A stretch of DNA of 64,000 bases from a virus (IMGVR_UViG_3300044551_000092:96001-160000); one strand, 5' to 3'; numbered from the stretch's first letter, positions 22,833-41,305 are shown. Numbers and translations are program-made. Notes: generated by a model from the sequence alone, not told the origin.

Positions 22833-22845
22833 GAGGTGAAAAGGA

Positions 22846-23265: not shown

Positions 23266-23267
23266 TT

Positions 23268-23678: not shown

Positions 23679-24273
23679 GAAAGATCTGTCATTCTATGGT
23701 CGCCGAAAAGTGGACTGTACGGTCGAACAAAAAGGAAATTATAATATCATCCGTTGGAAACCCGCTGATCATTTTTTAATCTATGGTTATGAAATCTATC
23801 GAAGCGCTATTCATACTGAAGAAGGAAATTTGCTTGTTCTCATTGATAATATTTATGGAGAATATGCCGATCCAATTCCGCCAAATGATCAGACACCGTA
23901 TTATTATACGGTCTACTATATTTCTTATGGCGATTTAGGAATCAAAAATGGTGATTTAGCATTGACAGATGGAAAAGCCTGTGCTGAACAGGATGCTTTA
24001 AATCGGATACGAACTCAGACAACAGACTGGCGCAGTCATCCAGAACTCGGGGCTGATCTTGAAGATTTAGAAGGCGAGCCCAATACAAGAGTAAATGGGC
24101 AAAAAGGAGTCGATCAGATTTTTAAGGCATTGACTCAAGATGGCCGTTTTTCACCAGAGGACGTAACGGTACGGGCTATCCCTGTTTCAATTGAAGAAAT
24201 TGATTTTTATACAATTATTGATACTCACGATGGAGATCCGATTGTTATCAAAACCCCATTAACCTTGCAATAA
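23662..24273 (+). CDS. gp25/gpW-like baseplate wedge protein with N-terminal FN3-like segment
   Basis: GDLALTDG...RIRTQTTDWRSHPELGADLEDLEGEPN...IFKALTQDGRF (gp25-like); N-terminal IRWKP...GYEIYRS...YYYTV. Start moved from 23587 to ATG 23662 (SD GGAGAGG). Confidence 0.7.
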   Translation: MGNYSEKDLSFYGRRKVDCTVEQKGNYNIIRWKPADHFLIYGYEIYRSAIHTEEGNLLVLIDNIYGEYADPIPPNDQTPYYYTVYYISYGDLGIKNGDLALTDGKACAEQDALNRIRTQTTDWRSHPELGADLEDLEGEPNTRVNGQKGVDQIFKALTQDGRFSPEDVTVRAIPVSIEEIDFYTIIDTHDGDPIVIKTPLTLQ

Positions 24274-24288
24274 AAGAGGTGAGGAACT

Positions 24289-25155
24289 ATGTTTGTTAGA
24301 CGATCAGCAATGGATATAATCGACACAGCAACGGATTATATTCTCTCTAATACATCCATTACGAATATGAATCCAGGCGGCATTGCCCGATCAATTACAG
24401 AAGCAATGGCTCCGGAATATGAATCGCTTTATGATTTTGCTCAGGACGTACTTGATCAAGGAATATTAAGTAAAGCGACATTGGATGCCACCACAAATAC
24501 GGATTACTTAGCTTTGATCGGAGGGCTTTTTAATTACCCTAGGCGGACAAAACAAGTTTTGAATGTTGATACAGGCATTACCGAAGAACAACCCATTGAT
24601 GATGATACCTATCGGTATGAAATATCTCAGCAAGTACAGGCGCAAGTCTCTTCAAATGAACAGGCCGTCAGACTTGCCGCGCTGACAGCTGACGGGGTGG
24701 CCGATATTATCATTCAAGAATACACGCATGGATCTGGGAGCTTTTCAATAATCGTTATGCCTGTTTTTGGCTTTGACGATCACGAAGTATTAAATGCAGT
24801 CATTGACAAAGTAAATGATAGCCGAGGGCTCGGGATCCGGGCGAACATTACTTTACCGGTTTATGTAGACGTTGATGTCTCACTACAACTTGTCTTCAAA
24901 GATTTACTTGCAGAAGATGAAAAGCAAAATACCATTTTTGATATTACCAGTAAAATAACAGACTATCTGGGTAACTATACAGTTGGTCAATCATTTGTCT
25001 ACAATGATTTTGTCGCAAAAGTCATGGAATCCTCAGATAATATACAAGATTTTATTGTTGTCTCTTTGAATTTCAATGATACACCTGTATTACTGATGAA
25101 TCAGACTATTAACGATGATGAACGGATTCGACCAAGAAATATCACTGTAGCATAA
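24289..25155 (+). CDS. Baseplate J-like wedge protein
   Basis: ITNMNPGGIARSITEA...A...L..IG...R; DDDTYRYEI; ALTADGVADI; GSGSFSIIV; IDKVNDSRGLGI; follows the gp25-like gene. Confidence 0.8.
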   Translation: MFVRRSAMDIIDTATDYILSNTSITNMNPGGIARSITEAMAPEYESLYDFAQDVLDQGILSKATLDATTNTDYLALIGGLFNYPRRTKQVLNVDTGITEEQPIDDDTYRYEISQQVQAQVSSNEQAVRLAALTADGVADIIIQEYTHGSGSFSIIVMPVFGFDDHEVLNAVIDKVNDSRGLGIRANITLPVYVDVDVSLQLVFKDLLAEDEKQNTIFDITSKITDYLGNYTVGQSFVYNDFVAKVMESSDNIQDFIVVSLNFNDTPVLLMNQTINDDERIRPRNITVA

Positions 25156-25177
25156 TTAAACTAGAGAGGTGAGTCTT

Positions 25178-25759
25178 GTGGGGACAAAAATTCAACTTTA
25201 TGATTTAGAAACACTCATTCAAAATTTGATTAATGACCTGAAAACTTTTCAGGGTAACCATGAAACCCTTCTTAAACGATTGCAAGATATATCTATTAAT
25301 GATTTAGATGATTCTATAAAAGAAATTTTACAAGACCTGTTGCAAGGCAAGGCAGATTCTAATCAATTAACCATTGCCCGCATAAATGAACTTGAAACAC
25401 AGATTAGCGATATTTTAGATAATCTCAGTCAAATTCAATCCTCTTTAGGTGACAATAACAATCAGAATATTCATTACGAATATGATGAAAATGATAATGT
25501 TGTTAAAGAAATTACAACAGGCGATAATGCCTATACGACTGAATATTTCTATTCTGGTGAAAATCAAGACATTCTTAATCACTCGATAAAGACGATTATT
25601 CTCAAAAATGGTGATACATTAACGGTTACAGAGCAATATCAATATGCTGGAGACAATATAACATCGATCGTGCGAATAGCTAAACTGACACCAAAAGAAC
25701 CAGAAACGCCAATAGTTGAGTCAGCATATTCAAAAGAAGTGGCTGTTGCAGTTGCCTAA
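25178..25759 (+). CDS. Hypothetical structural protein (coiled coil + short YD-like beta repeats)
   Basis: Heptad-rich N-terminal half; YEYDENDNV, YFYSGE, YQYAGDNI. Start GTG 25178 chosen from SD GAGGTG (track start 25169). Confidence 0.5.
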   Translation: MGTKIQLYDLETLIQNLINDLKTFQGNHETLLKRLQDISINDLDDSIKEILQDLLQGKADSNQLTIARINELETQISDILDNLSQIQSSLGDNNNQNIHYEYDENDNVVKEITTGDNAYTTEYFYSGENQDILNHSIKTIILKNGDTLTVTEQYQYAGDNITSIVRIAKLTPKEPETPIVESAYSKEVAVAVA

Positions 25760-25782
25760 ACTAGTAGGGATGGTGATTTATC

Positions 25783-27267
25783 TTGGATATTGTATCCTTG
25801 AATAAGGCCAATCAAGCCTTAAAAAGAATAAAACATCTTGACCAGGATATTATTGGTGCCGGCGCTGAAAGCCACTTTAAATCTGTCGATGCAAGGCTTG
25901 ACTGGATTGAAAATCAAGCGCTTGTTCAGTCCGCCGCTAACACATTAAACATCGATTTATCCAAGGGAACATTTAATAATACAGAATTAATTAATAATAA
26001 ACTACAATTAAAAAAAATCGGTGAAACACAAGCAGGTTATACAGAAAATGTCATACCCGCAAAATTATCTTTTGATGATCTGAGTAAATATCCATGGAAA
26101 ATAACAGGAACAGGTTTTCTAAAGTTTAGATCTCCGGACCGTATGTTTGATCATGGAGCTTCAGCTTTTGCAGGAGGGACTAATGGACCTGGTTCAGGTT
26201 ATATTTTATTTGATACTGGAGAAGGATATGAAACTCAAATCACAAAAATAAGATTGACATCTGCTGGATATGGATTTCCTCAGAACTGGAAAATTGATAC
26301 ATCTGATGAAAATAATTTTTCTGGGGAAGAAAAAACAGTTTATCAAAACACGGATGAAAGTTATAAGAATAAAGGACAAATATTAGAAGTCAATCTTTCT
26401 ACAGATCGACCATATCGTTATTATAAAATGACTTATAAAAGCACGTATGGTGATTATGCTCCTATAGGCCAGCCTGGTAATCACTTATCACTTTATGAAT
26501 TGGAAGCAATGGCGCCGAAAACGGTTACCATATATGCCTCACAGGGAAGTTACGAAACTGAAAAGATTGATTTTGGGATTGGCTATATTAAAACTGATTT
26601 AATCAATATTGTTCAGCAATTACCTTCTAGTGATGCTAAAGTAGAAACCTATATAGCCGATTCAGCGGATGGAGAAAACTTTAGTGATTATGTTTTGCTT
26701 GATCTTGAAAACCTGCCACAAAACAGGTACATCAAAATAAAGTTATCTTTGTCTGCACTAGCTCTTTCTGAAGATCCAACTTCTGCTACAGAAACGCCCA
26801 CTGTATCTTCTGTTACAATCGATATTATTGAGCAATCGCTAGAAGGTCGGCTAAAAAATTTGGAACTCTCTAATGCAATTAATCTAGCCAAACTAAATTT
26901 TAGAACCAGCGCTTATGCTTTAACTGATAAGTATCAGTTGGAAGAGATGGTTATTGATACATTTGAACAAAGCGGATCAGTAGATCCGGCAACCACCGCG
27001 TCATATGATGAGACAAACAAGCAGTATATTGGTGCGGGGGATATGCTGACTGTGACCGATACGCTTGCCTATCCTCCGACCGGTTTCCTGATTGTGGCGG
27101 ATAGTGATAAGGCAACCTTTCAATATTCACTAGATAATGGGGCAACGTGGGTGGACGCGCCAACCAATCAATTTATTAATATCACTACAACCAATACGCA
27201 ATTAAAAATAAAAGCAACGATTGAAGAAGGCGGGGCTCTTAGGGCTCTAGCTTACTCATGGATCTGA
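25783..27267 (+). CDS. Tail fibre/adhesin family A member with discoidin (F5/8C)-like insert
   Basis: N-terminal MDIVS, INLAKLN core, C-terminal SLDNGATW...LKIKA...LAYSWI shared with paralogs; central MFD...FPQNWKI...YRYYK...ELE. Confidence 0.6.
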   Translation: MDIVSLNKANQALKRIKHLDQDIIGAGAESHFKSVDARLDWIENQALVQSAANTLNIDLSKGTFNNTELINNKLQLKKIGETQAGYTENVIPAKLSFDDLSKYPWKITGTGFLKFRSPDRMFDHGASAFAGGTNGPGSGYILFDTGEGYETQITKIRLTSAGYGFPQNWKIDTSDENNFSGEEKTVYQNTDESYKNKGQILEVNLSTDRPYRYYKMTYKSTYGDYAPIGQPGNHLSLYELEAMAPKTVTIYASQGSYETEKIDFGIGYIKTDLINIVQQLPSSDAKVETYIADSADGENFSDYVLLDLENLPQNRYIKIKLSLSALALSEDPTSATETPTVSSVTIDIIEQSLEGRLKNLELSNAINLAKLNFRTSAYALTDKYQLEEMVIDTFEQSGSVDPATTASYDETNKQYIGAGDMLTVTDTLAYPPTGFLIVADSDKATFQYSLDNGATWVDAPTNQFINITTTNTQLKIKATIEEGGALRALAYSWI

Positions 27268-27278
27268 GGTGATAACGC

Positions 27279-28784
27279 ATGGATATAATCAGTTATCAAG
27301 CGGCTAAAAAGGCCAAAAAAGCCGCACAAAAACTGAATGATCGGATTGGTCTTGGCGCGGCAGCGAACGGTGATCCGGCAAATTACGTCGATGGGACGGC
27401 CAAAACCGTTAAAGAACGTCTGGAGAATTTAGATTCCAAGGCTCTTCCTGAATCTTTTAATAAACAAGTTTCTAAACTTGAAGAAAACACAATGATTAAT
27501 TTAAATAAGACCAATCTGAAGATGGAAGCTCTTTTATCTAAAGATCGGTTCAAGTTAGAAAATCTCGTGTTCGATAATTTTAAAGATGAAACTGGCATTG
27601 ATAAGGATCAATCCAATAATTATACGTTTGATCAATCAGCCGATAAAGTAAAGCAAACGAGTCCGACGATCCCTGCAGAAATTGTAACTATTGCTGAAGA
27701 AACAGAAGAGACACCTCAAAAAATTACCGTTTCCCAATCCAGTAAAGAACAAATAAATGAAGAAATGCATGTTGATTTGTCTAAGGGAAACCTTATTCAT
27801 GCTGAATTAGTTGATGGCACCGTACGGCTTGCTATTGAAGATGAAGAAAACCAGCACTATTTTGAATCCGGCAGCTATGAATCAACGGTAATTGACCTAA
27901 GCGAAAACTTCAAAAAGTTTACAAAATTGAATGCCGCAATTTTCTACCGTTCAATTTCCGGAACAAATACCATACCAGCAATGACCAGCAATATCGCGCC
28001 CGGCGGAGAAGCAGAAGCGAGTAGTATTTATAATTCGAATCATCAACCGTGGAAGGCGTTTAACCATACGACCAATGTAAATGATGTTAATGATGCATGG
28101 GTTCCCGCACCCAATGATACATCCCCTTGGATTAGCTATGATTTTGGAAATGCAAGAACTATTCGGGCTTATCTAATTACGATAAGGACGTACAGTACAG
28201 ATGGTAATCTTGGACCTACCAGTTGGATGTTTGAAGGATCCAACGATGGAGAAAATTGGACTACTATTGATTCTCATTTTAATCAACCTCAATGGACAAC
28301 CGGTGAAAAAAGAGGATGGATTTTATCTAATCCACAGTCGTTTAGATATTATCGTTTAAATATAACAGATACTGCAAGTCAAATCATTTCAATCGGCGAA
28401 CTTGAAATGCTTACTGATGTCTATACAAAAAAAGAAGAAATCTACACTGCCACATCAACGGACAATCAAACTTTTACCGATTATGAACCCTTAAACTCAG
28501 ATGACACAATTGCTTCTCCGGATGGTCGATATATTAAAGTCAAAATTGTCTTGCCGGCAGCGGCTGGGCTTAAAGAACAACCTGTTTATGATTTTTCAGC
28601 TAACGATGAATCTGTGAAATTTCAGGAAAACAACTACATTGATTTTACTAACTCACTTAAATTAAAGACGAATTATATAGAAAACATGATAATCGATGAT
28701 TCATACACAGAGGAAGGTACAATATTTAAAACAACAATAGATAAAACTAAATTTCAGTCCATAGACAAGATTGAGGTGTGGTAA
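27279..28784 (+). CDS. Tail fibre/adhesin family A member (N-terminal half of scaffold) with discoidin domain
   Basis: MDIISY...RLENL...INLNKTN...FDNFKDETGID; IPAMTSN...WKAFN...WISYDF...PTSWMFEGSNDGENWTTID...FRYYRLNI...IGELEM. Confidence 0.7.
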   Translation: MDIISYQAAKKAKKAAQKLNDRIGLGAAANGDPANYVDGTAKTVKERLENLDSKALPESFNKQVSKLEENTMINLNKTNLKMEALLSKDRFKLENLVFDNFKDETGIDKDQSNNYTFDQSADKVKQTSPTIPAEIVTIAEETEETPQKITVSQSSKEQINEEMHVDLSKGNLIHAELVDGTVRLAIEDEENQHYFESGSYESTVIDLSENFKKFTKLNAAIFYRSISGTNTIPAMTSNIAPGGEAEASSIYNSNHQPWKAFNHTTNVNDVNDAWVPAPNDTSPWISYDFGNARTIRAYLITIRTYSTDGNLGPTSWMFEGSNDGENWTTIDSHFNQPQWTTGEKRGWILSNPQSFRYYRLNITDTASQIISIGELEMLTDVYTKKEEIYTATSTDNQTFTDYEPLNSDDTIASPDGRYIKVKIVLPAAAGLKEQPVYDFSANDESVKFQENNYIDFTNSLKLKTNYIENMIIDDSYTEEGTIFKTTIDKTKFQSIDKIEVW

Positions 28785-31529
28785 ATGCAATATTATCTAA
28801 TAGTAACTTATGGGAGCGGAACACTATCGAGTGATAAATTGACAGCAACTACATCTGGAAATATGAAGGTTTCTCCAAATGAAGAAATTAAAGGAGATAA
28901 ATTTTACTATGAAATTAAGCTTAATATGAAATATTGTAATATTGAATCTCCAGCAGGTTTAATAAAAGAAGCTTTATATAATTCAACAGCACTTATTGGC
29001 GTTGAAGTCGATAATATAAATCATACACGAAGAATATTTATGGATGGTAATATATATAGAACACAGACTAATATTCCATCTAATAAGATGAACATTGAAA
29101 TATATGGTGGAGGTACAGTAACTTATAATTTTGGGAACCTGCCTTTTGAATATCAATCACCTAATCAATTTCCTGCTGCTATTTTCGCGCTTAGTAAATA
29201 TCTTTTTAGAGACATTGGAGATATAAAATCTTATAACAAAAAAATTAGTACAAAATCAATTGATTTTACGGGCAATAATTCTGGTGCGATGGTTAACTCC
29301 CCCAGCAGTGAATTAACAATCACTGGGGATGTTACACTACAAATTAAAACAAAAATTAGAGATTTATCTAATAATCCAATTTTAATAGCTTCTGGTAATG
29401 ATGGGGAAGCCAATGCAGCAAATGTTACATATCAAATTACTGTTAGTAAAAACGGAACAATTAATTATAAGCACGAATATAATAATGGACAAGATGAAGT
29501 TATAAGTACAGATAATTCTTATTTACCATTAAATGAATGGGTAGATATAGCCATTACAAGAAATACTGAGGATAAAATTATAACTTTTTATATTAATGGT
29601 GTTAAAAAAGAACAAAAAAGTTTTTCAAATTCACCAAACGGTGGCACTGATAATAAACTATCAATGGGTAGCTGGATTAATTCAATGTATTTTCTTAATG
29701 GTCAATTGGATGAAATAAAAATTTGGAATCGTATCTTGACTGATGAAGAAATTAAATTTTATTACAAACATTCTGTTGATCCAACATCAGATGGTCTAGT
29801 TGGTTATTGGCCCATTGAAGAATTAGATGGAACTATACTTAGTGATCTTAGCCCATATAAAAACAATGCAACAATAACAAATGGTTCTTTTTCAGATGAT
29901 ACAGACCTATTATTTGTTAGCTGGAAAACTATAGGCCCTGCACCAGCAACAAAAGCTATGTTTGATTCAGATGGTATGACGAACCTATCCAATATTGATA
30001 ATGAAGCCATTCAACAATTAGAGTCAGATCAGCCGGAACTCCTTTGCTGGACTGATGAAAATGTGCCACAATTAGAAAACACTATTCCTATCATGACTTC
30101 TGATACTTGCCCTAAAGGGACAGTTATTGATGGGGGGACATATAACGTCAGTGGTGAGACAAAAGTCAATCGTTGGGATGCTTTCAATGGTCAACCAAGT
30201 GGTTGGGGGTCTCCCTATAATACAAAAAGTGGCTGGATCGGGTTTCATTTCAGTACAGCAAAGGTGATTAGACAATACACAATACAGGCTGATGAAGTTT
30301 CATCTGTAAGTTTTGCACCAAAAGACTGGACTTTTGAAGGGTCAAATGATGGAGAAAACTGGACAATCCTTGATACGCAATCAAATGTAACTTCTTGGGA
30401 AAACCTAGAAAAGAAAACCTTTGAGATCAACAACACGAATACATTTTGTCAATACCGAATAAACATTACAGCAAATAATGGTGCTGATCACATTATTATC
30501 GGTGAAATTGAAATGTTTGGCTATGAACCCCGCCATGCAATATTGGCAGCTATTCCTAATCCCCAATTAGTCTTGCCGAAAGAAGACATAGAAATAAAGA
30601 ATTTTGAGAATATCAAAATAGATTCCATTTCACCTATTAATCTTTGCGTTGGTGGAGAACCCATAGCGAGTCGTTATGATACAAAGAATGGTAAACATAT
30701 TCCTGAAAGTGCTTTTGACAATGATGCATCTACGGCGTGGGATAGTGGTCAATATGGCAGCGCTGATGATTGGATTGGTTATGACTTTGGCGCGAGCCAC
30801 CCATTAGTTAGAAAAATAGTTCTTACACAAATGGATGCCGGCCATGCAGTAAGTGGGGTGACTGTACAAAGATCAACGGATAATATAAATTGGATTGATA
30901 TTATTACTGTTAGTTTAAGTCAAGACAGTTCTATACAAGAAATAAAACTCCCAAATACTGAATCAGCACAATATTGGAGAATTAAATCAACTTCAGGTCC
31001 ATCTCATGGTGGTTGGGGTTGGGAGATTTCAGAACTAAAAATGTTTGGTTGTTCAAATGAAGATATTAAAATAGTCCTTAGTGCTGATGAGGGAATGACA
31101 TGGATGGGCAAAACATCAGTAGATATTTCTGATTTGTCTTCTGTTAAATCGAACGGATGGTCCCCTGATGAATTACAAACCATTAGTCCTGATCAAATAT
31201 TAGATATAGTACCGAACAGAAAAGTTCGCTTTGCTTTCTATTTAGAACAAGAAAAATTAGAAAACATTACAGCACTAACATCTTTAAAAATCAATAATAG
31301 AGAATATATTTTCACTCCAACGTTGACGAATCTATCGATATTATTTCAGCTTTTAAAATCAAAACATCCAACTTATTTTGTTTCTCGCGATGACGGTGTG
31401 ACATGGAAAGAAATTGAACCCGACAAGCTTGTTGACTTCACTGATCAACCAGAGGGTAATAAACTTCGCATTAAAGCTCGATTGGAAGATGGACAAGAAA
31501 TCTACGCACTGACTTATTCTTGGATATAA
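28785..31529 (+). CDS. Receptor-binding-like protein: LamG (ConA-like) + two discoidin domains + family A C-terminus
   Basis: LamG WVDIAIT...FYING...FLNGQLDEIKIWNRILTDEEI...GLVGYW; discoidin PKDWTFEGSNDGENWTILD and AFDND...WIGYDFG; ends SRDDGVTW...YALTYSWI. Confidence 0.75.
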   Translation: MQYYLIVTYGSGTLSSDKLTATTSGNMKVSPNEEIKGDKFYYEIKLNMKYCNIESPAGLIKEALYNSTALIGVEVDNINHTRRIFMDGNIYRTQTNIPSNKMNIEIYGGGTVTYNFGNLPFEYQSPNQFPAAIFALSKYLFRDIGDIKSYNKKISTKSIDFTGNNSGAMVNSPSSELTITGDVTLQIKTKIRDLSNNPILIASGNDGEANAANVTYQITVSKNGTINYKHEYNNGQDEVISTDNSYLPLNEWVDIAITRNTEDKIITFYINGVKKEQKSFSNSPNGGTDNKLSMGSWINSMYFLNGQLDEIKIWNRILTDEEIKFYYKHSVDPTSDGLVGYWPIEELDGTILSDLSPYKNNATITNGSFSDDTDLLFVSWKTIGPAPATKAMFDSDGMTNLSNIDNEAIQQLESDQPELLCWTDENVPQLENTIPIMTSDTCPKGTVIDGGTYNVSGETKVNRWDAFNGQPSGWGSPYNTKSGWIGFHFSTAKVIRQYTIQADEVSSVSFAPKDWTFEGSNDGENWTILDTQSNVTSWENLEKKTFEINNTNTFCQYRINITANNGADHIIIGEIEMFGYEPRHAILAAIPNPQLVLPKEDIEIKNFENIKIDSISPINLCVGGEPIASRYDTKNGKHIPESAFDNDASTAWDSGQYGSADDWIGYDFGASHPLVRKIVLTQMDAGHAVSGVTVQRSTDNINWIDIITVSLSQDSSIQEIKLPNTESAQYWRIKSTSGPSHGGWGWEISELKMFGCSNEDIKIVLSADEGMTWMGKTSVDISDLSSVKSNGWSPDELQTISPDQILDIVPNRKVRFAFYLEQEKLENITALTSLKINNREYIFTPTLTNLSILFQLLKSKHPTYFVSRDDGVTWKEIEPDKLVDFTDQPEGNKLRIKARLEDGQEIYALTYSWI

Positions 31530-31541
31530 GAGGTGACCTAT

Positions 31542-32138
31542 ATGGACCCAATCAGCTATGGTGTTGCAAATCAAGCACTAAAACAACTTAGTAACATTGA
31601 ACATGCTTTAGGTGAAGATGTTCAAGGGAATTATGAATCTATTAAAGCGCGAATTGATGCACTGGAAATTGCCATGCAGACTGTAGTTAAAGAAGCTGAT
31701 AAGCTCATCATCCAAGATGCCATTAATATTATGAAAGCTAATGCCAAATTCAATGTGGCCGTAAAAGCTAAACGTTATCAAATGCAGAACATGCTTTTTG
31801 ATGATCTTTTGGATGACAGTGGTCTCGACAAAGTCAAAAGTAAAAACTATGTACTTGATACAGAAGTCGGGACAATCACAGCTAGTGATGATTGTCTAGT
31901 TGAAACAGGAAAATTGGAGCTTCCCGCGACACCAGCTAAACTCATTTTGGTTGTTGATCAGACATCAATAAATACTTATTATGCTTCACGAGATGGTGGA
32001 ACGATATGGGAAGCTATCACACCGGAACAGTTATTTTATTTCGATGATAATATTAGTCCTTTAGAAAATAAATTGAAACTAAAGATGAAATTATCTAATG
32101 GTTCAAAACTACTTAGTTATGCCCTGACATGGGTGTAA
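31542..32138 (+). CDS. Family A minimal scaffold protein
   Basis: MDPISYG...RIDALE...INIMKAN...FDDLLDDSGLD...SRDGGTIW...LKLK...YALTWV with no insert. Start ATG 31542 (SD GAGGTG; track start 31533). Confidence 0.6.
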   Translation: MDPISYGVANQALKQLSNIEHALGEDVQGNYESIKARIDALEIAMQTVVKEADKLIIQDAINIMKANAKFNVAVKAKRYQMQNMLFDDLLDDSGLDKVKSKNYVLDTEVGTITASDDCLVETGKLELPATPAKLILVVDQTSINTYYASRDGGTIWEAITPEQLFYFDDNISPLENKLKLKMKLSNGSKLLSYALTWV

Positions 32139-32156
32139 GTAAAGGAGCAAAGGATA

Positions 32157-32603
32157 ATGACCGTACAACGAATTAGTTTAGTTCCAGATAGTGAAAAAGA
32201 TTATCTAATTATCAAGCAAAAGATTCTGGATCAACAGCTGACCAAAAAAGATTATGATCAGTTGCCGCCGGCAGAACAGCAGGTCGTCGAAAAGGCTTTA
32301 TTTGATATTGCTTCTGACAAAGTTGAACCTAACATTGGTGCTTCAGCCCTAGAATTTGTTCTTTTCATGTTCATGAGAATTGTAAATAAAAAATTAGTAG
32401 GCAAAAGCTTAACTGCGGATGATAAGATTATCGAGGCCTCATTAAACCGAATTACATCCATGCATCAGATTACAGACAGTAAATTATCGATCGATCAATG
32501 GCTTTTTGACTACATGGCTTATGCGGAAGAAAAAGCAGCTAAAATTCTGCAAAATCGTAAAGAACACATTGCAAGGAAGGTTGAAATCACTGGTCATCAT
32601 TAA
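32157..32603 (+). CDS. Hypothetical helical protein
   Basis: SD AAAGGAG; 148 aa; no recognised motif. Confidence 0.5.
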   Translation: MTVQRISLVPDSEKDYLIIKQKILDQQLTKKDYDQLPPAEQQVVEKALFDIASDKVEPNIGASALEFVLFMFMRIVNKKLVGKSLTADDKIIEASLNRITSMHQITDSKLSIDQWLFDYMAYAEEKAAKILQNRKEHIARKVEITGHH

Positions 32604-32668
32604 ATTCTTAGAAAAATCGGCTTTGCAAGATCTTTAGAAAAAACATACGATAAAACTGGTGATCTATC

Positions 32669-33163
32669 ATGGCTATAGAAACTGGTGATCTTATCTTTGT
32701 GCGGGATCAGCCGGATCTTATTTCCAGATTAATTTGTTGGTTTACCGGCAGCCGTTATTCACACGTAGGAATGATCTATCAAGACGACTTGATCTATGAA
32801 ATTAATTTATCCCGGCAACTCGCAATCTACCCCAATCGATATAAACATTATGATATCTATCGGTATAAAAAAGGCTTAACTCATTTACAAAAAATAATGT
32901 TACAGGATCAAGCGGCAGCTGAAGCAAAGGTAAATGAAGGATATGATTTACCAAAAATCTTTGAATTTGCCTTGATGAAATGGATCAAGAAACCGTTTGT
33001 TTTGAAACAAAATAAAAAGAAAATCTGCTCTGAAATTGTAGATAATCTATATCTAAGTATTGGGATTGATCTTGTTCCTGAAAGAATTAATGGGGATGTT
33101 CGACCGGTTGATTTGGTTAAATCTTCACAGCTGAAAAGAATATATTCCTACGATCTTCGCTAG
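32669..33163 (+). CDS. Permuted papain-like NlpC/P60 amidase (YiiX/YebB-like)
   Basis: GDLIFV...ISRLI.WFTGSRYSHVG (His) precedes GYD...ICSEIV (Cys)...VRPVDL, the permuted His-before-Cys order. Confidence 0.85.
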   Translation: MAIETGDLIFVRDQPDLISRLICWFTGSRYSHVGMIYQDDLIYEINLSRQLAIYPNRYKHYDIYRYKKGLTHLQKIMLQDQAAAEAKVNEGYDLPKIFEFALMKWIKKPFVLKQNKKKICSEIVDNLYLSIGIDLVPERINGDVRPVDLVKSSQLKRIYSYDLR

Positions 33164-33201
33164 TAGGTCAATAAAAAAATCGTTCTAAGGAGGAAGAACT
33201 C

Positions 33202-33849
33202 ATGGCGGATGCACTTGAATCAAATTATTCAAATGAAGTTAATGTCCAGGCTGAAGCGCCAGTTCCAGATACACTTGCTCCGGGTATTCCAGCAAATCTT
33301 GCAGCACAAATTGCACAGGGCAAAGTAACCCTATCGTGGGATCCAGTTACCAAGAATCACGATAACTCTGATATAACAGATCTTGGTGGCTATAATATTC
33401 TGCGTAAACTCCACGATGAAGATGAATTTACTCAGATTGGTCAAGTCGATGCGACTCATACATCCTATGAAGATACAGACATCGTTGACGGTGCGACGTA
33501 TATCTATGCCGTTAATGCGTATGATACCGCAGAAACTCCGAATGTCGGTTTAAATTCTGAAGAACTGACGGTTAAAACTATTCCAGGCATTCCTCAAAAT
33601 CTTGCTGGCTCTTCAGCGGATGGTAAAGTTAATCTGACGTGGGACAGCGTTCTTAATGCAGAAAGCCCCCATACAAATGAGAACCTTGCTGGATATAACG
33701 TCTATCGTTCAACCACAACAGGGGAAGGTTACACGAAAATCGGCTCAACCGATAAAAATACGACAACTTATGAAGATACCGATGTTGAGGCAGGCACCAC
33801 TTATTATTATGTGGTAACTTCGTATGATAACAGTGGCGCTGCTGCTTAA
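33202..33849 (+). CDS. Fibronectin type III repeat protein (two FN3 domains)
   Basis: Two repeats PGIP.NL......GKV.L.WD.V...GYN..R...YEDTD...G.TY.Y.V..YD; strong SD AAGGAGG; terminator follows. Confidence 0.85.
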   Translation: MADALESNYSNEVNVQAEAPVPDTLAPGIPANLAAQIAQGKVTLSWDPVTKNHDNSDITDLGGYNILRKLHDEDEFTQIGQVDATHTSYEDTDIVDGATYIYAVNAYDTAETPNVGLNSEELTVKTIPGIPQNLAGSSADGKVNLTWDSVLNAESPHTNENLAGYNVYRSTTTGEGYTKIGSTDKNTTTYEDTDVEAGTTYYYVVTSYDNSGAAA

Positions 33850-33868
33850 ATCAAACGACTGTATTTTT

Positions 33869-33899
33869 GAGACGCAGGAGAACACTGCGTCTCTTTTTT
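33869..33899 (+). terminator. Intrinsic terminator
   Basis: Perfect 9-bp stem GAGACGCAG / CTGCGTCTC, 7-nt loop, T6 tail. Confidence 0.92.
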
Positions 33900-33923
33900 C
33901 ATATGTTCAAGGTATATGAAACA

Positions 33924-33955
33924 TGGTACAATAAATTTAGAATGAATTTTCTAAA
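33924..33955 (+). promoter_or_regulatory. Extended -10 element (TGgTACAAT) followed by inverted repeat TTTAGAA-N6-TTCTAAA
   Basis: Lies between the terminator and the SD of 33973; no good -35. Confidence 0.4.
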
Positions 33956-33972
33956 GAACGGGGTGTATCTCC

Positions 33973-35415
33973 GTGTCGTATGAAAAGAAAACCGATATTT
34001 ATGAATTGGTTAGTAATGATCGGGTAGCATTTGAACAAATTAGTCAATCAGATTTAAAGGGGAAAGACATCCCAAAAACAGATGAATTTTTAGGCCTGTT
34101 TTATCAACAGTCACAATGTACAAATCTTGTGTTTAAATTGACAGGTTCAGCAACCGATATTTATCTAAAAATTTTTTATGTCAATCAACTTCCGCTTGCC
34201 ACTGCCAAACATGCCTTTATCCTGTTTTGGACAGGCACGAGCTGGAGCCGTATTGTTTTCACGCTGAATGAAAAAGAACATGCATTTGAGATTCATACGA
34301 ATAAAACAGGCTACTATGCGGTAGGAATCCAGAAAAATTGGTATTCTCAAATTACGCAATCCATTGCAAATGAGTGGCCGCATTGGGCAGGAATTCGTAG
34401 CGCTATTTCTTCCGGCCAAATTTACTTGAATCAATATGCCATGATTTTTGAAGAAATCAAAGAGCAGATTCAATGGATTCGAGAACAAAAATATCTAAGT
34501 ACGGTGGATGTACATCAACTGGATTGGATTTATATTTACTCGTTACCGGTGCCATTAACGGCTGATGATACGATCACCCTAAAAGATGGAGACCATTTGG
34601 TAGAAGTCTTTGATAGCGTTTATCAATTCTTCGTCAATGATTCCAATCAGGGCGGCATCATTGATTATGAAAAAAGTCGCTTTTATTCGGTTGCTAAATA
34701 TGAACAGTTAAAATTATATACCAATAAAGGCACATTTAATTTGGTTGGCCAACCCTATCAGGTGTGGAACTCGCTCGATGATTTTGGCTTATTGCTCGAT
34801 GAACCGCGACGATTTTTAGAAAAAAACAAAGATTATATTGAACGATTATTGAATGTGTTTCGCTATCCATCGAACACAACGAAAACAGGCGTCGCAAACG
34901 GGGTGGGGCGAAACCTTAATCTGATTCAAAAGGTTACGTGGGTCGATGATACAAAAACACTGTTTATTCGTAATGATTCTGCGGCCTATATTGAACCACA
35001 TAGCATTCGTGTTGATGGCTATAAATTAGATGCAAGTGATTATACAATCGATGCCTCGTTAAATTTAAAAATCAATCCCATGAACCAACATAAGACACAT
35101 ATAGTGACTTTTATGAATAACTTGATTCAACATGAACTCTATAATCAGCAGGATATGGAACTGCAAAAGTTGATCTATCAAGATGACGGTCAAGCAACCT
35201 CAACGCTTTTACATTGGGTTGAACAGATAAATATGATTGCGCCGGTTATGTGGGATCAGATTAAGTGGGATCAGGGTTTTTGGGACACGATCAATAAAAA
35301 TCTGCTAAGTATCGGATATATACCAAATATCTGGGATTCCAATACGGATGTCTGGAAATCATATGTTATCAAGAAAGACAGATGGGAGGCGCAAAACATA
35401 TGGCAGACGGAGTGA
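33973..35415 (+). CDS. Baseplate wedge protein with gpI-like domain
   Basis: LDDFGLLLDEPRRFLEKNKDYIERLLNVFRYPSNTTKTGVANGV resembles the gpI-type wedge signature; GTG start, SD GGGGTG. Confidence 0.5.
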   Translation: MSYEKKTDIYELVSNDRVAFEQISQSDLKGKDIPKTDEFLGLFYQQSQCTNLVFKLTGSATDIYLKIFYVNQLPLATAKHAFILFWTGTSWSRIVFTLNEKEHAFEIHTNKTGYYAVGIQKNWYSQITQSIANEWPHWAGIRSAISSGQIYLNQYAMIFEEIKEQIQWIREQKYLSTVDVHQLDWIYIYSLPVPLTADDTITLKDGDHLVEVFDSVYQFFVNDSNQGGIIDYEKSRFYSVAKYEQLKLYTNKGTFNLVGQPYQVWNSLDDFGLLLDEPRRFLEKNKDYIERLLNVFRYPSNTTKTGVANGVGRNLNLIQKVTWVDDTKTLFIRNDSAAYIEPHSIRVDGYKLDASDYTIDASLNLKINPMNQHKTHIVTFMNNLIQHELYNQQDMELQKLIYQDDGQATSTLLHWVEQINMIAPVMWDQIKWDQGFWDTINKNLLSIGYIPNIWDSNTDVWKSYVIKKDRWEAQNIWQTE

Positions 35416-38400
35416 TGAACCCTGATCAATTTCCAGACAGTGAATTGCCAAATCGAAATATTAAGCAAAACACTGACGATCATATTGTCTGGAAGACTGA
35501 TGAAGAGAAACAAAAAGTGATGTCTCCCGGTGTCATCGACGCCCCTTATCTTCAGGGTAAAACACAAAATCGGCCGATTAAAGCCATTAAATCTGGTGTT
35601 GGCGATCAAGACGATTTATTAGTGAAAAAGCCGGAAAAGGAAACTCTATCAAAAGATTTTAAAATATCCGCTCGGTTAGAAGGGGAGCAGCAGCACAGCA
35701 TTAATCACTTTCCAGGGATTGATTTTCAATACGGCATTCATTATAAGGGCCAATATTATGAAGATGACAACAGCCAGCACTACAAACACCGGGTCGATGC
35801 CTATCCGAAAAAAGTTTTAAAAGCTGAGATTACTCAAACCGATAAACATCCAGTTACACGTCCTTGGGTTGTTGGCGTAGACATTAATGGCCATGTTCGT
35901 AAGACCACATTGCATTATGCAGTAGAATGGAGCGGTCTGTATCAAGAAGAGGAAGTGCAGGGGGCTGCGGATCTGTTTACATATCAAAACGGGAATTTTA
36001 TCGGCCCTGGACCAAAAACAAATTCTTGGCACAAAGAGGGCGGCTCGGTCCAAAACTATGACAACCGATCGCATATGCAAGGTGTTGTGGCAAAAGAATT
36101 TTACGACTGGGATTCTTATGAGTGTGAATATGAATTTCAACCCATCCGCTCACTAAAATATCGCCCCGACACGGCAGCAACCGTTCCTTACAACGGCCGC
36201 TGGTACCGTCTGCCGGGCGCTGACGGCGATATCCTCGGCTTTGTGTTTAAGGCTAAGCCAGATAATAAAAACTTCTATCTGTTCCTCTGGGAGGCTCAGG
36301 ATAGGGTAATGAGTTCTTGGCGGGCTAAATCATTTAATGGTTATAACTGTTTAACCGGTGGTGTCAGCGATTATACGTTGGATAAGGCGGAACAGGTTTA
36401 CCGGAGGTATATGTCCTCATCCAACCAAGCCGCGCTTGGAATATATACTGGGCTTAGCTTGAGTACGGGGTCAAATTCAGATATTACAAGCTCACAATGG
36501 AGTAAGTGGACTCGCTGGTGTAACAGTGCCGGTTGGGGGAAACGCCATTATAAGATATATAAAGTAACAAATGGCGTCATGCATGAAGTACATGTGACGC
36601 CGCGAGGCAACAACAATGGCTGGAAACAAAACTGGATTGATGGTTCCGGCTACTTTCCCATGGATTACTTAAACAGTGTCAAAATACACGTAGAAGGACG
36701 ACGCGTACAGATTTATACCAAATCCTATAAATCAGGACATTATAACAGTGTTGGTTTTCAAAAAGCCTTTGACTTTAATGTCGCTTCGGGTTATGAACAG
36801 GGAAGCACGGGTATTGTTACCTTTTCACAGTCTGTAAAAATGACAAAGATCCGAGTATCCCGTTGGTTGCCTATGAACGGTCGAGTTCCATCATCGGGCT
36901 ATAGCGCATGGAGTGGAATCGGTTCGAAAAAGATAAGCTCTTCCGGATCATCTTACGTTGACAGCTCTGCGCGATCAATGGCCAGGCAAAAGTCTGGGCA
37001 ATCCGACCCAGAATATGAAGTTAAGAAAGTAACTGGTTTGGTCGAAAATAAAGAATATGGATCTATCTCTGCATCGGTAAATCGACCTGTCGTGCTTACG
37101 TCCACCAATCCAAAAGACGCGGGCGGTATCCGGACAATTACGCCGACACGTTCAGGGACGGCTTATATTACACCTGATCATTTTAATCAGGAGACTTGGC
37201 TGATGGTAATTAAAGATATACCCAGCCTTTTTAAAGAAACGATCAATAGTTTCTTAGCCAACAATCCAGAAATTGATCGAATTGCCTCTGTTGTTCCTCG
37301 GGTGATTAAACCCAATCATAAAGATGACGATGACTGGGATTTCGTGAATGGAGCGCTTTATATGTGGAACAGTGCCCCACCGATTACGCAAAAAACGAAA
37401 GACTACGCCGTCACTGTTTATGCATACGAAGGATTGAAACGAGTCGCTAATCTATGGGATGATTTTCAAGATTCCAAATGGGCAACTTATGTTCTACGGA
37501 TTATTGACAATCCAGATGATCCGACTGGCTTTAATCCAGATTTTGACAAACTGTACATCAAAGATAAAAAGCTTTACGCTCAAACGAAAGAATGGTATCT
37601 GGGGACTTATGATGCCGATATTAGCGATGTGGGAACAGTCACCAATCAAGCCAATGTTGAGATTGATATTCCGCCAATGCCTGAACATTTTATTTCACCG
37701 TCTACCGGAGAAGAAATGTATCATGGTTATACAGACGTGGATTTTCTCCTAAACCAGCTAGAACCGACGATCGTTAAAGATGTATGGATGTGGTTTAAGA
37801 GTAATCTGAGTCGCACAACCAAGAATACTCAATCGCCCTTAAACGTTCTGAATGGTAAGCCTATTATTAAGACGAATCTCATAAATGATAAAGTTGTTGT
37901 CCACTGTGAACCTCGTCCGCACTATATCCCTTGGGAGTCTGGCAAGTATATTGGATATGGCAAAGTCAACGGTAAGCGTCCATTCTTTTCTGCAGCACAT
38001 GGAAAAGCAGATTTAGCTAATGTGCCAACTAATGTGGTTTATATTGCTCCTGGAGTCAATCGCTTGTCCGACCCGATTATTGATGTCAGTGACGATCGAG
38101 TCAAATTTAAAATTAATCCAGATAAGACAGTCACTTTTTATTCGGATTATGAGGCTCCCTATGTATGGAAAACTCAATGGCATAGTCAGTGGAAAGATCT
38201 CCCGCTGGTTTACACCATACGTTCTGATGAGCAATGGATACGTCAGGTGTCCATTGATTTTAGTCAAGAAGATCTTGGCAATTATGATACTGGCAGTATT
38301 CAAGTTGAACGTATTCATGTTGTTCCAAGCAATCCTTTTGTGAATCTTTGGGCGGAAAAGGCTTTCGATAACCAAAAGAAAATCAACTATAATTTTGATG

Positions 38401-41291
38401 TCAAATGCGATATTCGCTACCCGTCGGTAGCACAAATTGACCTTAATAACTTTTTCGCCAATTGGAAAAATTACAATGAACTGAAAAACGGAGAAGGGCA
38501 GGAGGCCGATCCGAATAGCCCAAATGAGGGAGACTGGCATGGGCCCCCCGAAGCCGGCTATCCTAAAATCACAAACATCATCAACCAGAATGGCTTATCT
38601 GGCTGGTATAACCCGGCACATGCATCTCTCAAAGATTACACCTATCATTTTAAAGTGCAGGAGAAGTCTGGCTGGGATAATGACATGTATGGTGCCATGT
38701 TCCGCTTCGATCCAAAGACGTTAAATTTCTATTCGTTTGAGTGGGACGGCGGCGGCTACACGGCCGAGGGACATAACGGAATGAATATTATCCGCAATAT
38801 TTGTTTGGATCCGGAGAACTACGGAAAGCATTCACTGCATTATTCTAAAAAACAAATCGGCCATAACGACTTAAAATGGGTGCCGCTCAGCGAAGACATC
38901 CACGACGTATCAATAACCGTGCAGGGGCAGCAGATTCAGGTATATACCGATGGCGAAAAACGGATTGACGTGATTGATGACGATCCAGAGGCGCTTCTGT
39001 ATGGCGCATTTGGACCGCTCACCCTGTCGAACCCGGACACCTATTTCTGGGACTTGTCGCTTGAAACTTATGAAACAGCGACGATGACGCAGCACTTTGA
39101 AAATCAGCTGCCGATGCCGTTTGATGCTAACCTACATCCCGTTGAACAGCAAATCGTGACTGGTCTATTTGGCTACTTCCAGAGTTTCATTTCTAACTAT
39201 ACGAATGACTTGAGTGACGTGTCGCTTCTTTACACGATTCAAAATGACAAGAGCGACGTTTCGGTATATTTTAACAGGACCGGCAAGACAATGTCGTCAA
39301 ATCAGGATGATATTCCTTGTGGGACTGTGACGAACGCAGACGGCGGCAGTTCATCGACCTATACGGTCTATGGCGAGATCAAGGCGGAAACGCCTTATCC
39401 GTGGTCACCGATGCTGCATAACGGCTATTATTATTTTAACGAGAAAGAAAACTTTTTATTTGCAAACCCAATTGTTGAACAACACAATACTGTTCATATC
39501 ATTAATGTTTTAATTCTTTATCCTGCCGCTCTGCATGGCGACCCAGAAGGGAAAACAAATATTCAGCACGCTATTGAAAACTATGGAAACTTCAGTCAAT
39601 ATGAAAAGATTCATGCGGTCCAGGATGTCTATGAAAATTATAATAAATACAATGCCGATCACTTTGATGTATTAACTTTCTGTCCGGCTGACTGTAATGC
39701 AAGACAGGATATTACAGATGATATGATGAACTGGATCCGTGATTTCTACCACAAAGATAAGATTATTATTTTTACACACGACACGGCGACAATGTCTCAG
39801 GGGACGGGACTTTCAGGCAGATTTGGAACGTTGTTTCAAGAGATGGGTTTTACGCTTAATCCGCGAGAATATACCCGTGCTACAACTATTCGAAAAACTG
39901 TTCATGAAGAATGGATGGACTATCCGTATAAGCTGCCAGATGTCATGACAGTCACACATACGCATTGGAACTGGATTGATGGAGGAAAAGGATTATTTTC
40001 ATTCGGAAATAACGACAATGAATTCTGGTTGCGTAACATCGGAAACGTTTACTATTCCGAGTCGGGAGACGGGACTTATGATTGTAACGGCGAATACATC
40101 CAACCATTAAGTGAAGATGAGCAAAAAATTTGGGTTAACTTAATCATGAAAGTGGCCAAATGGCGGCACTATGATGAATTTGACCCACGAGAACCCATCT
40201 TAATGTCACGGCCAAAACAGGGTGCCCCAACAATTGTCAGAGCCAATGATGTTTTACTTCGGAAAACGAATTTTTATGATGGAGCAATGAAGCGAACTTT
40301 AGAAAAAACGGAGCGCTTCCACGGAAATGGACGTTCAAAATATTACTTACTGTATCAAGGCATAGACGGAGAGACATTAAAAGTCTTTGTAAATGATGAA
40401 AGCATTGAGGATTATATTTTTGATGCCGATCAGTCCAGCATTCAATTCATGCAGCAGTATAACGACCAAGATGTCATTGTCGTTAGTTATCATCTTCAGA
40501 AAAGTTATACAATCGATGAAAATTTTCAAGTCGGCGATGATGTGGCAAAGGTTATTGTTGATCCAAATATGAGCATCAATCAGTTAAATAACTTAGAAAT
40601 CATTTATGAGGGTACGGATTTAACTCCATTTTACCGAGCTAGTGAAGTAACTTTAAATCCAATTCTTACTCATAATCATAGTGGCTTTTTACGGTTGACT
40701 GAAAAGACAGATCAGAAGCCATCGCAATTAACCGTCATAGCCTCTCCAGATCATGCGGTTCCAGGAGATCAAATTATCATTACAGTGAGAGTTGAAGACC
40801 AAGACGGCAATCCCGTTGAAAAAGTCGGTGTAGTCTTAAGAAAAGAAGGAGCCGATTATAAAAACGGCCAAACAAATGAGGCAGGAGAAATCTATTTCTA
40901 TGACCAAATTGGTGCGGCACAAACAGTGACCTACCGAGCAATCTGTGATACTTTGCAACGAGATGTTTTAGTTTATGTTGCAAGCCAATCGACTTCGAAT
41001 CAGAATTTTATTGAGTTAAAAACATCACAGCCATCGTTATCAATTAAGCGTAAAGAGGAAGCTACAATATACTTAACGGTAAGAAATTCGGACTGGTCAG
41101 TTATGGCCAATCAATCTGTTTCAATATCTTATCTAAATAAACAGTTGACAGTATTAACCAATAAATATGGACAAGCAGCGATTACGTTAAACAGCGACGG
41201 ACAAAAAGCACAACTTGTTCCAATCAAAGTTCAAGCCACAATAGAAGGAATAAAAATTGTAAATGAAATCATTATTCAACTGGTTGATTAA
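35400..41291 (+). CDS. Giant multidomain virion/fibre protein (two TSP_C-like lectin modules, alpha/beta insert, C-terminal Ig-like domains)
   Basis: DGDILGFVFK...NFYLFLWE and DNDMYGAMFR...NFYSFEW; Big_1-like IIITVRVEDQDGNPV. Start ATG 35400 (SD GGGAGG; track start 35382). Confidence 0.6.
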   Translation: MADGVMNPDQFPDSELPNRNIKQNTDDHIVWKTDEEKQKVMSPGVIDAPYLQGKTQNRPIKAIKSGVGDQDDLLVKKPEKETLSKDFKISARLEGEQQHSINHFPGIDFQYGIHYKGQYYEDDNSQHYKHRVDAYPKKVLKAEITQTDKHPVTRPWVVGVDINGHVRKTTLHYAVEWSGLYQEEEVQGAADLFTYQNGNFIGPGPKTNSWHKEGGSVQNYDNRSHMQGVVAKEFYDWDSYECEYEFQPIRSLKYRPDTAATVPYNGRWYRLPGADGDILGFVFKAKPDNKNFYLFLWEAQDRVMSSWRAKSFNGYNCLTGGVSDYTLDKAEQVYRRYMSSSNQAALGIYTGLSLSTGSNSDITSSQWSKWTRWCNSAGWGKRHYKIYKVTNGVMHEVHVTPRGNNNGWKQNWIDGSGYFPMDYLNSVKIHVEGRRVQIYTKSYKSGHYNSVGFQKAFDFNVASGYEQGSTGIVTFSQSVKMTKIRVSRWLPMNGRVPSSGYSAWSGIGSKKISSSGSSYVDSSARSMARQKSGQSDPEYEVKKVTGLVENKEYGSISASVNRPVVLTSTNPKDAGGIRTITPTRSGTAYITPDHFNQETWLMVIKDIPSLFKETINSFLANNPEIDRIASVVPRVIKPNHKDDDDWDFVNGALYMWNSAPPITQKTKDYAVTVYAYEGLKRVANLWDDFQDSKWATYVLRIIDNPDDPTGFNPDFDKLYIKDKKLYAQTKEWYLGTYDADISDVGTVTNQANVEIDIPPMPEHFISPSTGEEMYHGYTDVDFLLNQLEPTIVKDVWMWFKSNLSRTTKNTQSPLNVLNGKPIIKTNLINDKVVVHCEPRPHYIPWESGKYIGYGKVNGKRPFFSAAHGKADLANVPTNVVYIAPGVNRLSDPIIDVSDDRVKFKINPDKTVTFYSDYEAPYVWKTQWHSQWKDLPLVYTIRSDEQWIRQVSIDFSQEDLGNYDTGSIQVERIHVVPSNPFVNLWAEKAFDNQKKINYNFDVKCDIRYPSVAQIDLNNFFANWKNYNELKNGEGQEADPNSPNEGDWHGPPEAGYPKITNIINQNGLSGWYNPAHASLKDYTYHFKVQEKSGWDNDMYGAMFRFDPKTLNFYSFEWDGGGYTAEGHNGMNIIRNICLDPENYGKHSLHYSKKQIGHNDLKWVPLSEDIHDVSITVQGQQIQVYTDGEKRIDVIDDDPEALLYGAFGPLTLSNPDTYFWDLSLETYETATMTQHFENQLPMPFDANLHPVEQQIVTGLFGYFQSFISNYTNDLSDVSLLYTIQNDKSDVSVYFNRTGKTMSSNQDDIPCGTVTNADGGSSSTYTVYGEIKAETPYPWSPMLHNGYYYFNEKENFLFANPIVEQHNTVHIINVLILYPAALHGDPEGKTNIQHAIENYGNFSQYEKIHAVQDVYENYNKYNADHFDVLTFCPADCNARQDITDDMMNWIRDFYHKDKIIIFTHDTATMSQGTGLSGRFGTLFQEMGFTLNPREYTRATTIRKTVHEEWMDYPYKLPDVMTVTHTHWNWIDGGKGLFSFGNNDNEFWLRNIGNVYYSESGDGTYDCNGEYIQPLSEDEQKIWVNLIMKVAKWRHYDEFDPREPILMSRPKQGAPTIVRANDVLLRKTNFYDGAMKRTLEKTERFHGNGRSKYYLLYQGIDGETLKVFVNDESIEDYIFDADQSSIQFMQQYNDQDVIVVSYHLQKSYTIDENFQVGDDVAKVIVDPNMSINQLNNLEIIYEGTDLTPFYRASEVTLNPILTHNHSGFLRLTEKTDQKPSQLTVIASPDHAVPGDQIIITVRVEDQDGNPVEKVGVVLRKEGADYKNGQTNEAGEIYFYDQIGAAQTVTYRAICDTLQRDVLVYVASQSTSNQNFIELKTSQPSLSIKRKEEATIYLTVRNSDWSVMANQSVSISYLNKQLTVLTNKYGQAAITLNSDGQKAQLVPIKVQATIEGIKIVNEIIIQLVD

Positions 41292-41305
41292 AAGGAGAAA
41301 GCACT

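Follow-up and report, generated by a model that had tools for sequence, protein, structure and literature searches.

A 215-residue protein encoded by a large virus contains two FN3 domains and a 23-residue N-terminal peptide and nothing further; the second of these domains ends ahead of its last β-strand (strand G), and the peptide at the opposite end of the chain resembles just that missing strand. The best reading of this arrangement, and one we consider probable, is that copies of the protein complement each other in trans in a homotypic, head-to-tail fashion, with the N-terminal strand of one copy being donated to the incomplete domain of another. That such an exchange would be propagated into an open fibre is a more specific proposal within this reading, and we offer it as a tentative suggestion whose chances we would place somewhat below even.

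Architecture of the permuted FN3 protein

The window, i.e. the whole 64,000-nucleotide stretch of DNA that was analyzed, covers bases 96001-160000 of a virus record of 206,290 bp, which CheckV rates as complete. The gene and its associated features, all on the + strand and given in window coordinates, are as follows:

33187-33193, +: Shine-Dalgarno element AAGGAGG, 8 nucleotides before the ATG at 33202, read from the sequence
33202-33849, +: coding sequence of the 215-aa permuted tandem-FN3 protein, including the TAA at 33847-33849 (from the open reading frame list, the Pfam fn3 match and 23 homologs)
33214-33252, +: residues 5-17 (LESNYSNEVNVQA), an orphan FG-turn and G-strand peptide, the predicted donor strand (from alignments and models)
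33253-33282, +: residues 18-27, the proline-rich linker between the donor strand and domain 1 (from alignments)
33283-33582, +: residues 28-127, the complete FN3 domain 1 with strands A to G (from AlphaFold2)
33583-33846, +: residues 128-215, FN3 domain 2 with strands A to F, the predicted acceptor (from AlphaFold2 and profile)
33869-33899, +: intrinsic terminator with a 9-bp stem including 6 GC pairs, a 7-nucleotide loop and T6

The Pfam fn3 profile (PF00041) matches the protein in two stretches with 37.1 bits, against a cut-off of 25. AlphaFold2 assigns to domain 1 the seven strands A, B, C, C', E, F and G of an FN3 domain (31-38, 41-47, 61-69, 77-83, 88-91, 99-108 and 122-125; pLDDT 95-98), but to domain 2 only six (132-139, 142-148, 162-170, 178-184, 189-192 and 202-209), with the residues that follow being disordered. 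The C-terminus of the protein stops within the FG turn (..SYDNSGAAA), and when a profile of domain 1 is aligned to domain 2 it covers positions 4-87 of 104, the part corresponding to the G strand being missing. The absence of the G strand from domain 2 is common to every member of the family. A first-pass annotation of this DNA, made from the sequence alone, had described a complete first repeat that ends in a G strand, a second repeat that stops after its F strand and an orphan G-strand-like peptide at the N-terminus; the first two of these are confirmed by the strand assignments above and the third by the comparisons that follow.

In P0025, an ordinary relative with three FN3 domains (38% identity at 96% query coverage), BLASTP pairs the first domain's G strand with residues 7-17 of the permuted protein, and the last domain runs on through ...VDQAGNESQPSKEMSASA. 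A profile search of 1.8 billion representatives returned 68,113 matches, dominated by giant tandem FN3 proteins; this library of representatives yielded neither a census of permuted members nor informative fusions. The ordinary tandem FN3 arrays align unbroken to positions 5-205 of the family profile, and the junction between their repeats is equivalent to the C-terminus of the family (...YYYVITSYDNSL) joined to its N-terminus (M..LES.YS.QV.A.A.D..AP), as is seen in the array P0066, where it reads ...YYYVVTATDN-LS-LESVYSIQTSATPGD. Given that ordinary tandem arrays carry the same motifs without interruption, the 215-aa protein consists of two repeats of an FN3 array that have been cut in the FG turn, not at a domain boundary, and by the same alignments the N-terminal peptide is a true homolog of the G strand. 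The linker at 18-27 likewise resembles the inter-domain linkers of ordinary FN3 arrays, with four extra residues in this phage. When the N-terminal peptide was appended to domain 2 and scored with the domain-1 profile, the gain over a shuffled peptide was just 1-5 bits, but this profile is a poor test for permuted constructs because the donor strand differs too much from the G strand of domain 1.

Conservation of the permutation across the family

Database searches recovered 23 relatives with lengths of 199-276 aa, which show ~47-55% identity over at least 72% of the query; the coverage of the query is 93-97% in all of them except two with an insertion. Their sources include contigs of up to 217 kb and assemblies named Bacillus cereus, B. 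thuringiensis and Alicyclobacillus shizuokensis, and the contig of one relative has been deposited under Campylobacter jejuni. A further member, CDS0048 (340 aa; L001:5443-6465), is encoded by the cultured 176-kb Moorella phage MTATph1. Carriers of the gene hence include both this cultured phage and prophage-like elements in Bacillus cereus-group and Alicyclobacillus assemblies. The ends of the protein are fixed throughout: all 23 database relatives and the MTATph1 protein begin with M-x(0-2)-L-E/Q-S-x-x-S, and all of them likewise terminate with ...D-x-x-x in the FG turn. In an alignment of 22 sequences L5, S7 and S10 are invariant and E6 is retained in more than 90%, and the donor strand is conserved to a degree comparable with the integrated G strand of domain 1. 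At the nucleotide level, a search of a phage collection with the segment 32600-35500 returned no match. A search of the virus's own genome found only one FN3 gene of the permuted family.

Some members differ in the first domain, which has an insertion of ~65 residues in P0022 and P0024 and of ~130 residues in MTATph1 CDS0048. The insertion in P0024 matches the N-terminal domain of the T7 tail fibre (PF03906) with 25.7 bits, which is barely over the cut-off, and each subunit with such an insertion may carry an extra binding module. As a separate observation, the largest contig in a cluster of B. cereus homologs that are 50% identical to the query (P0011) has 206,290 bases, the very size of the record from which the window is taken; this match is probably a coincidence or a bookkeeping artefact.

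Structure models of the monomer and of three copies

Structures were modeled for P0001, which differs from the window protein at a single residue (T153 for A153). The AlphaFold2 monomer (mean pLDDT 91.6, pTM 0.78) has its two domains arranged as an extended rod that matches tandem FN3 structures in the PDB with a probability of 1.00, the nearest being titin A77-A78 and fibronectin 12-14 (TMq 0.57-0.58). A search of solved structures by sequence gave only weak titin and Fn3-like matches, with no close relative among them. In the monomer model residues 1-26 form an unpaired coil (pLDDT 63-68), and the chain is not closed upon itself.

The first-pass annotation had suggested that two to four copies be modeled together. 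Such a model with three full-length copies, built from alignment A1, predicts a head-to-tail interface formed by the G strand, with an ipSAE of 0.72 as against 0.00 for the best of three controls. The mark of 0.72 is reached by 20 of 30 proteins solved as same-chain pairs and by 1 of 23 solved as single chains, counts that are a rough guide for a protein run with its own alignment and in three copies instead of two. The three-copy runs share at least 93% of their contacts, with a pLDDT of at least 87 for the partner. In this model residues 2-21 of the scored copy are predicted to insert into a second copy, where they contact domain 2 (125-143, W147 and 195-213), while domain 2 of the scored copy itself receives residues 2-20 from the third. 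The residue pairs with the lowest error (7:208, 10:206, 12:204, 15:203 and 16:201) place the inserted strand antiparallel to strand F, with strand A (residues 127-134) alongside, which is the canonical register of a G strand. Donor residues 5-7 also contact residues 37, 39 and 96-97 in domain 1 of the acceptor, as would be expected if the nicked FG turn were situated at the junction between the domains. Domain 1 of the donor makes no confident contact with the acceptor, implying that the hinge would be flexible and that reciprocal dimers are geometrically possible. As the output describes the contacts of one copy, a chain and a three-membered ring look alike in it. The model may, moreover, have done no more than complete the familiar FN3 fold, in which case its passing score would reflect likeness rather than binding.

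In FN3 domains strand G starts at the pole of the FG turn and finishes at the far pole. From the register of the contacts and the extended shape of the model, the FG-turn pole of domain 2 is expected to face domain 1, and closure within one chain would be sterically hard because the ~10 residues of the linker would have to span two domain lengths to get back to domain 1. Taken with the interface itself, this supports a model in which the N-terminal strand fills the groove of another copy. The earlier proposal that each subunit has its C-terminal FN3 domain completed by the N-terminal strand of a neighbor is accordingly strengthened in its general form, by the conserved permutation, the unclosed monomer, the three-copy interface and the topology of the FN3 fold. 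The accompanying claim of a long flexible phage fibre is less secure, since closed dimers or trimers fit the same data.

A model for head-to-tail strand complementation

Under the reading that we favor, the two-domain FN3 "brick" is a tandem FN3 array that has been circularly permuted by a break in its FG turn: domain 2, running from strand A to strand F, leaves an open groove at the position of strand G, and the matching G strand precedes domain 1. Since the G slot of domain 2 would point away from domain 1, and the linker that follows the donor strand is of ~10 residues, the donor strand would be unable to reach its own domain 2. It would instead enter the domain 2 groove of a different copy, beside strand A and antiparallel to strand F, and thereby restore a normal FN3 fold that is merely nicked in the FG turn. 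Repetition of this step from head to tail would chain FN3 domains non-covalently into a counterpart of the giant FN3 arrays that are covalent in other proteins. Given that the gene is situated between genes for baseplate and receptor-binding proteins and those for giant virion proteins, such a chain might be attached to the baseplate or fibre apparatus, where it would act as a flexible tether or accessory fibre. What counts against this model is that polymerization in the cytoplasm would have to be kept in check, and no means of doing so was found; nor did the analysis identify an anchor or cap protein conserved across the family.

Expression signals and gene neighborhood

The reading frame of the gene opens at 33175 and no start codon precedes the ATG at 33202, ahead of which lies a canonical and strong ribosome-binding site. 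The terminator hairpin at 33869-33899 begins 20 bases past the stop codon and is the top-ranked terminator-like site in the 19.5 kb scanned (22000-41500). A strong Shine-Dalgarno element and a terminator of its own had both been attributed to this gene in the first-pass annotation, and both are present, the AAGGAGG 8 nucleotides before the ATG and the hairpin with its T6. The strong hairpin and U-run lie in a gap of ~100 nucleotides 3' of the gene (33850-33972), and equivalent gaps of ~100 nucleotides with a hairpin and U-run are found in three relatives (L003:10628-10722, L005:10634-10740 and L006:10625-10726). The terminator sequence itself differs among these divergent genomes and the window, though the hairpin and U-run are kept; the Moorella phage MTATph1 has just 17 nucleotides at this position. 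Within a late operon that is otherwise tightly packed, the gap with its hairpin marks a conserved transcript end or attenuation point. A high copy number of the protein is only suggested by the ribosome-binding site and the conserved terminator, and these signals would fit a subunit made in excess over its downstream neighbors, of which they are no more than suggestive.

Upstream of the permuted FN3 gene lie genes for gp25-like, gp6/J-like and other baseplate proteins, and then for fibre-like proteins bearing discoidin and laminin-G domains. Downstream is a homolog (482 aa) of ORF162 of Bacillus phage 0305phi8-36, which in that phage is a low-copy virion protein, and beyond this are genes for giant virion proteins. 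The cassette conserved among relatives starts with the gene for a 148-aa protein, which in most cases is followed by one for a C92 permuted papain-like amidase; then come the FN3 gene, the ~100-nucleotide gap and the genes for the 482-aa protein and a giant PA14 protein. The gene directly upstream in the window (32669-33163) encodes a YaeF/YiiX-type permuted papain-like amidase (phrog_1128; PF05708 with 23 bits, below the cut-off), which adjoins the FN3 gene in the Bacillus-type relatives and is missing from the Alicyclobacillus element; it may act as a virion lysin or in processing.

The phage 0305phi8-36 (L007, 80213-88159 of EF583821) lacks the permuted FN3 gene, and at the corresponding position it encodes ORF161, a virion protein of 114 aa. 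Given that this relative of the module, whose virion has been characterized, is without the gene, the permuted FN3 protein is dispensable for an architecture of the 0305phi8-36 type. FN3 domains are common among the baseplate and fibre proteins of 0305phi8-36, such as gps 163 and 165-167 (PMC2147016). The FN3 domains of gp163, of which there are four beginning near residue 300, are ordinary and complete, and are unrelated to the permuted family.

Candidate partners and anchors encoded in the same genome

Two segments of the baseplate module were considered as possible attachment points for the permuted FN3 protein:

23701-23925, +: FN3-like six-strand segment at the N-terminus of a gp25-like baseplate protein, a candidate anchor (from AlphaFold2)
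25712-25756, +: C-terminal tail IVESAYSKEVAVAVA of a 196-aa baseplate-module protein, a possible donor for domain 2 (from a motif scan and translation)

The coding sequence of the gp25-like protein runs from ~23647 or 23662 to 24273; its start may be the ATG at either of these positions and not the TTG at 23587. The first-pass annotation had pointed to its FN3-like segment as a possible anchor that also seems to end after its F strand. As for shape, this agrees with AlphaFold2, which gives six strands over residues 19-93, a low-confidence hairpin at 97-106 and the gp25 fold (mean pLDDT 76.6). As an FN3 domain, though, the N-terminal segment has no Pfam match and is found by our own FN3 profile with E = 1.7, and it is missing in most carriers of the permuted FN3 gene: long forms of 198-208 aa with this domain occur in the window and in a Parageobacillus galactosidasius prophage, while most relatives have short forms of 131-140 aa. 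The gp25-like protein hence stands as a weakly supported candidate for the anchor.

The 196-aa protein (25169-25759) is coiled-coil and RHS/YD-like, and is encoded directly after the J-like wedge gene. Its end (25688-25756) consists of a linker, TPKEPETP, followed by the G-strand-like IVESAYSKEVAVAVA, which has ES.YS.EV.V in common with the donor strand. This likeness is not significant on the scale of the genome, the BLOSUM62 score of 29 being equal to the median best score from shuffled open reading frames, and the 12 best matches to the family donor profile do not include the tail. Homolog searches for the tail recovered no relative that carries one, and it is missing from the counterparts of the 196-aa protein in Alicyclobacillus, Parageobacillus and a metagenomic relative (L011). 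Either the tail or the gp25-like domain may serve as a local anchor in this phage only.

Within the 206-kb genome the sole FN3 domain that lacks a G strand, by both our own profile and PF00041, is domain 2 of the permuted protein, and the donor-strand profile of the family scores 19.1 bits with the permuted protein itself, the next best match having 5.9. Because neither the 196-aa tail nor the gp25 extension tracks the permuted FN3 gene, the conserved partner of the protein would most simply be the protein itself. Elsewhere in the genome a single FN3 domain was detected (81235-81453), and here the G strand is in place; it belongs to a 232-residue open frame at 80884-81579 of the record, ~15 kb upstream of the window, and this protein could be a decoration protein of the head module.

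Alternative explanations

The arrangement might also be produced by a process in which the protein has no assembly role at all, the gene being a decayed fragment left by the out-of-register loss of a larger FN3 array. The sequence does resemble two repeats excised from an array, but 25 family members that have diverged to ~50% identity begin and stop at the very same points, residues of the donor strand are invariant, a ribosome-binding site of its own and a conserved terminator flank the gene, and synteny is maintained in phages of Bacillus, Alicyclobacillus and Moorella; on these grounds this explanation was rejected, and we lend it hardly any credence. Closure within one chain, with the N-terminal strand lying on its own domain 2 to give a compact monomer akin to an ordinary Ig-like decoration protein, would be the simplest way to fill the open groove, and circular permutants of β-sandwich domains often fold. 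Yet the AlphaFold2 monomer leaves the first 26 residues undocked as a coil of low pLDDT, and the far pole of the G slot would, from the contact register and the extended model, be separated from the start of domain 1 by about two domain lengths, with ~10 linker residues to cover that distance. We rejected this arrangement too, in view of the undocked strand and the FN3 topology, and consider it very improbable.

Exchange between copies could alternatively end in a closed, domain-swapped oligomer, in which two or three copies swap their N-terminal strands to form a ring or an antiparallel dimer. Such a unit, lacking free ends, would serve as a strut or a decoration. The predicted trans interface suits this arrangement equally, and a ring of three is not separated from a chain by the output of the model; the ~10-residue linker has no confident contacts and is probably flexible, and from FN3 geometry two rods of ~8 nm lying antiparallel could exchange strands. 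Closure would, in addition, avert runaway polymerization in the cytoplasm. Set against this, the linker is an ordinary proline-rich linker of the kind that joins domains in serial FN3 arrays, the two domains of the subunit are modeled as an extended rod, and the scored copy in the three-copy model gives its strand to one neighbor and accepts that of another, so that the swap is not reciprocal; a closed dimer would also have no obvious advantage over an unpermuted pair of FN3 domains. We regard a closed oligomer as unlikely, and the preference for a polymer over it remains one of interpretation. Less probable still is a heterotypic adaptor, in which the groove and the N-terminal strand would each bind a different virion protein so as to make a two-ended connector instead of a homopolymer. 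Candidates for such partners exist in this phage, namely the tail IVESAYSKEVAVAVA, which follows a proline-rich linker and shares ES.YS.EV.V with the donor strand, and the gp25-like protein, whose N-terminal FN3-like domain has six strands and an uncertain seventh; moreover, every fibre requires an anchor anyway. The tail, however, scores no better than the median of shuffled frames and falls outside the top 12 of the donor profile, and both it and the gp25 extension are missing from relatives that keep the permuted FN3 gene, with the two not co-occurring. Head-to-tail complementation between copies of the same protein is thus left as our preferred reading.

Relationship to known donor-strand systems and FN3 arrays

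The pilins of the chaperone-usher pathway have an Ig-like fold without the last (G) strand, and the N-terminal extension of each subunit fills the groove of its neighbor antiparallel to strand F, joining the subunits from head to tail (PMC9715654). The permuted FN3 protein is like the subunits of these pili (type 1 and P pili, with FimA and PapA) in that it too has an incomplete Ig-like fold together with a terminal extension that matches the missing strand. In contrast to them, the phage protein has no signal peptide and no periplasmic chaperone or usher, and would be made in the cytoplasm of an infected Gram-positive cell; its N-terminus (MADALESNYS) lacks a hydrophobic leader, it has no fimbrial Pfam match, and its neighbors are phage structural genes. 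Its subunit differs further in having the FN3 fold and two domains, one of which is complete, and in its visible descent from a tandem array that was cut out of register. The sequences of the phage protein and the pilins are unrelated, with Pfam returning families of the fn3 type only.

Linkage of β-sandwich subunits by an N-terminal strand without a chaperone-usher system is known from the Saci_0406 threads, the archaeal bundling pili and TasA of Bacillus subtilis (PMC9715654; PMC9674648). These are secreted, cellular structures with folds other than FN3, none of them is encoded by a virus, and the threads add isopeptide bonds and glycans. The operon of the archaeal thread also includes a putative cap that has only a donor strand, and the G-like tail of the 196-aa protein would act in a similar way, if real.

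The permuted protein shares its domain type, motifs and proline-rich linkers with the covalent tandem arrays of FN3 or Ig-like domains in phage particles and giant bacterial surface proteins. In those arrays all domains are complete and belong to one polypeptide, whereas the phage bricks would be joined non-covalently, with a length that is not fixed by the gene. Hoc-like head decoration proteins are also small phage proteins of tandem Ig-like or FN3 domains, and one weak tblastn match (28% identity) is annotated as "Hoc-like head decoration". The permuted protein, on the other hand, has no capsid-binding domain, and its gene lies in the baseplate and fibre module, not in the head module. Hoc-like proteins are not known to lack a terminal strand. 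The permuted FN3 protein would be a variation on donor-strand complementation, and it belongs to none of the donor-strand families compared here.

Implications for phage structure

Donor-strand complementation is known from the secreted pili and matrix fibres of bacteria and archaea, and searches of a full-text literature library found no example of a virus-encoded fibre built in this way. It is possible, though on balance rather doubtful, that the permuted FN3 protein represents the first such fibre, i.e. a chaperone-free baseplate appendage of variable length that is built in the cytoplasm from two-domain FN3 bricks by jumbo phages of spore-forming firmicutes, and that its origin would simply be a tandem FN3 array cut with an offset of one strand. 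If this were true, it would mean that phages can assemble parts of their virions from non-covalently chained Ig-like bricks, and that a single event, the excision of repeats out of register from an array, is enough to create a donor-strand system. A nick in the FG turn would then make an FN3 domain into a natural self-assembling "tag and catcher" pair, which might be of interest in protein engineering. Such a role would also account for a conserved and unannotated gene in widespread jumbo phages and prophage-like elements.
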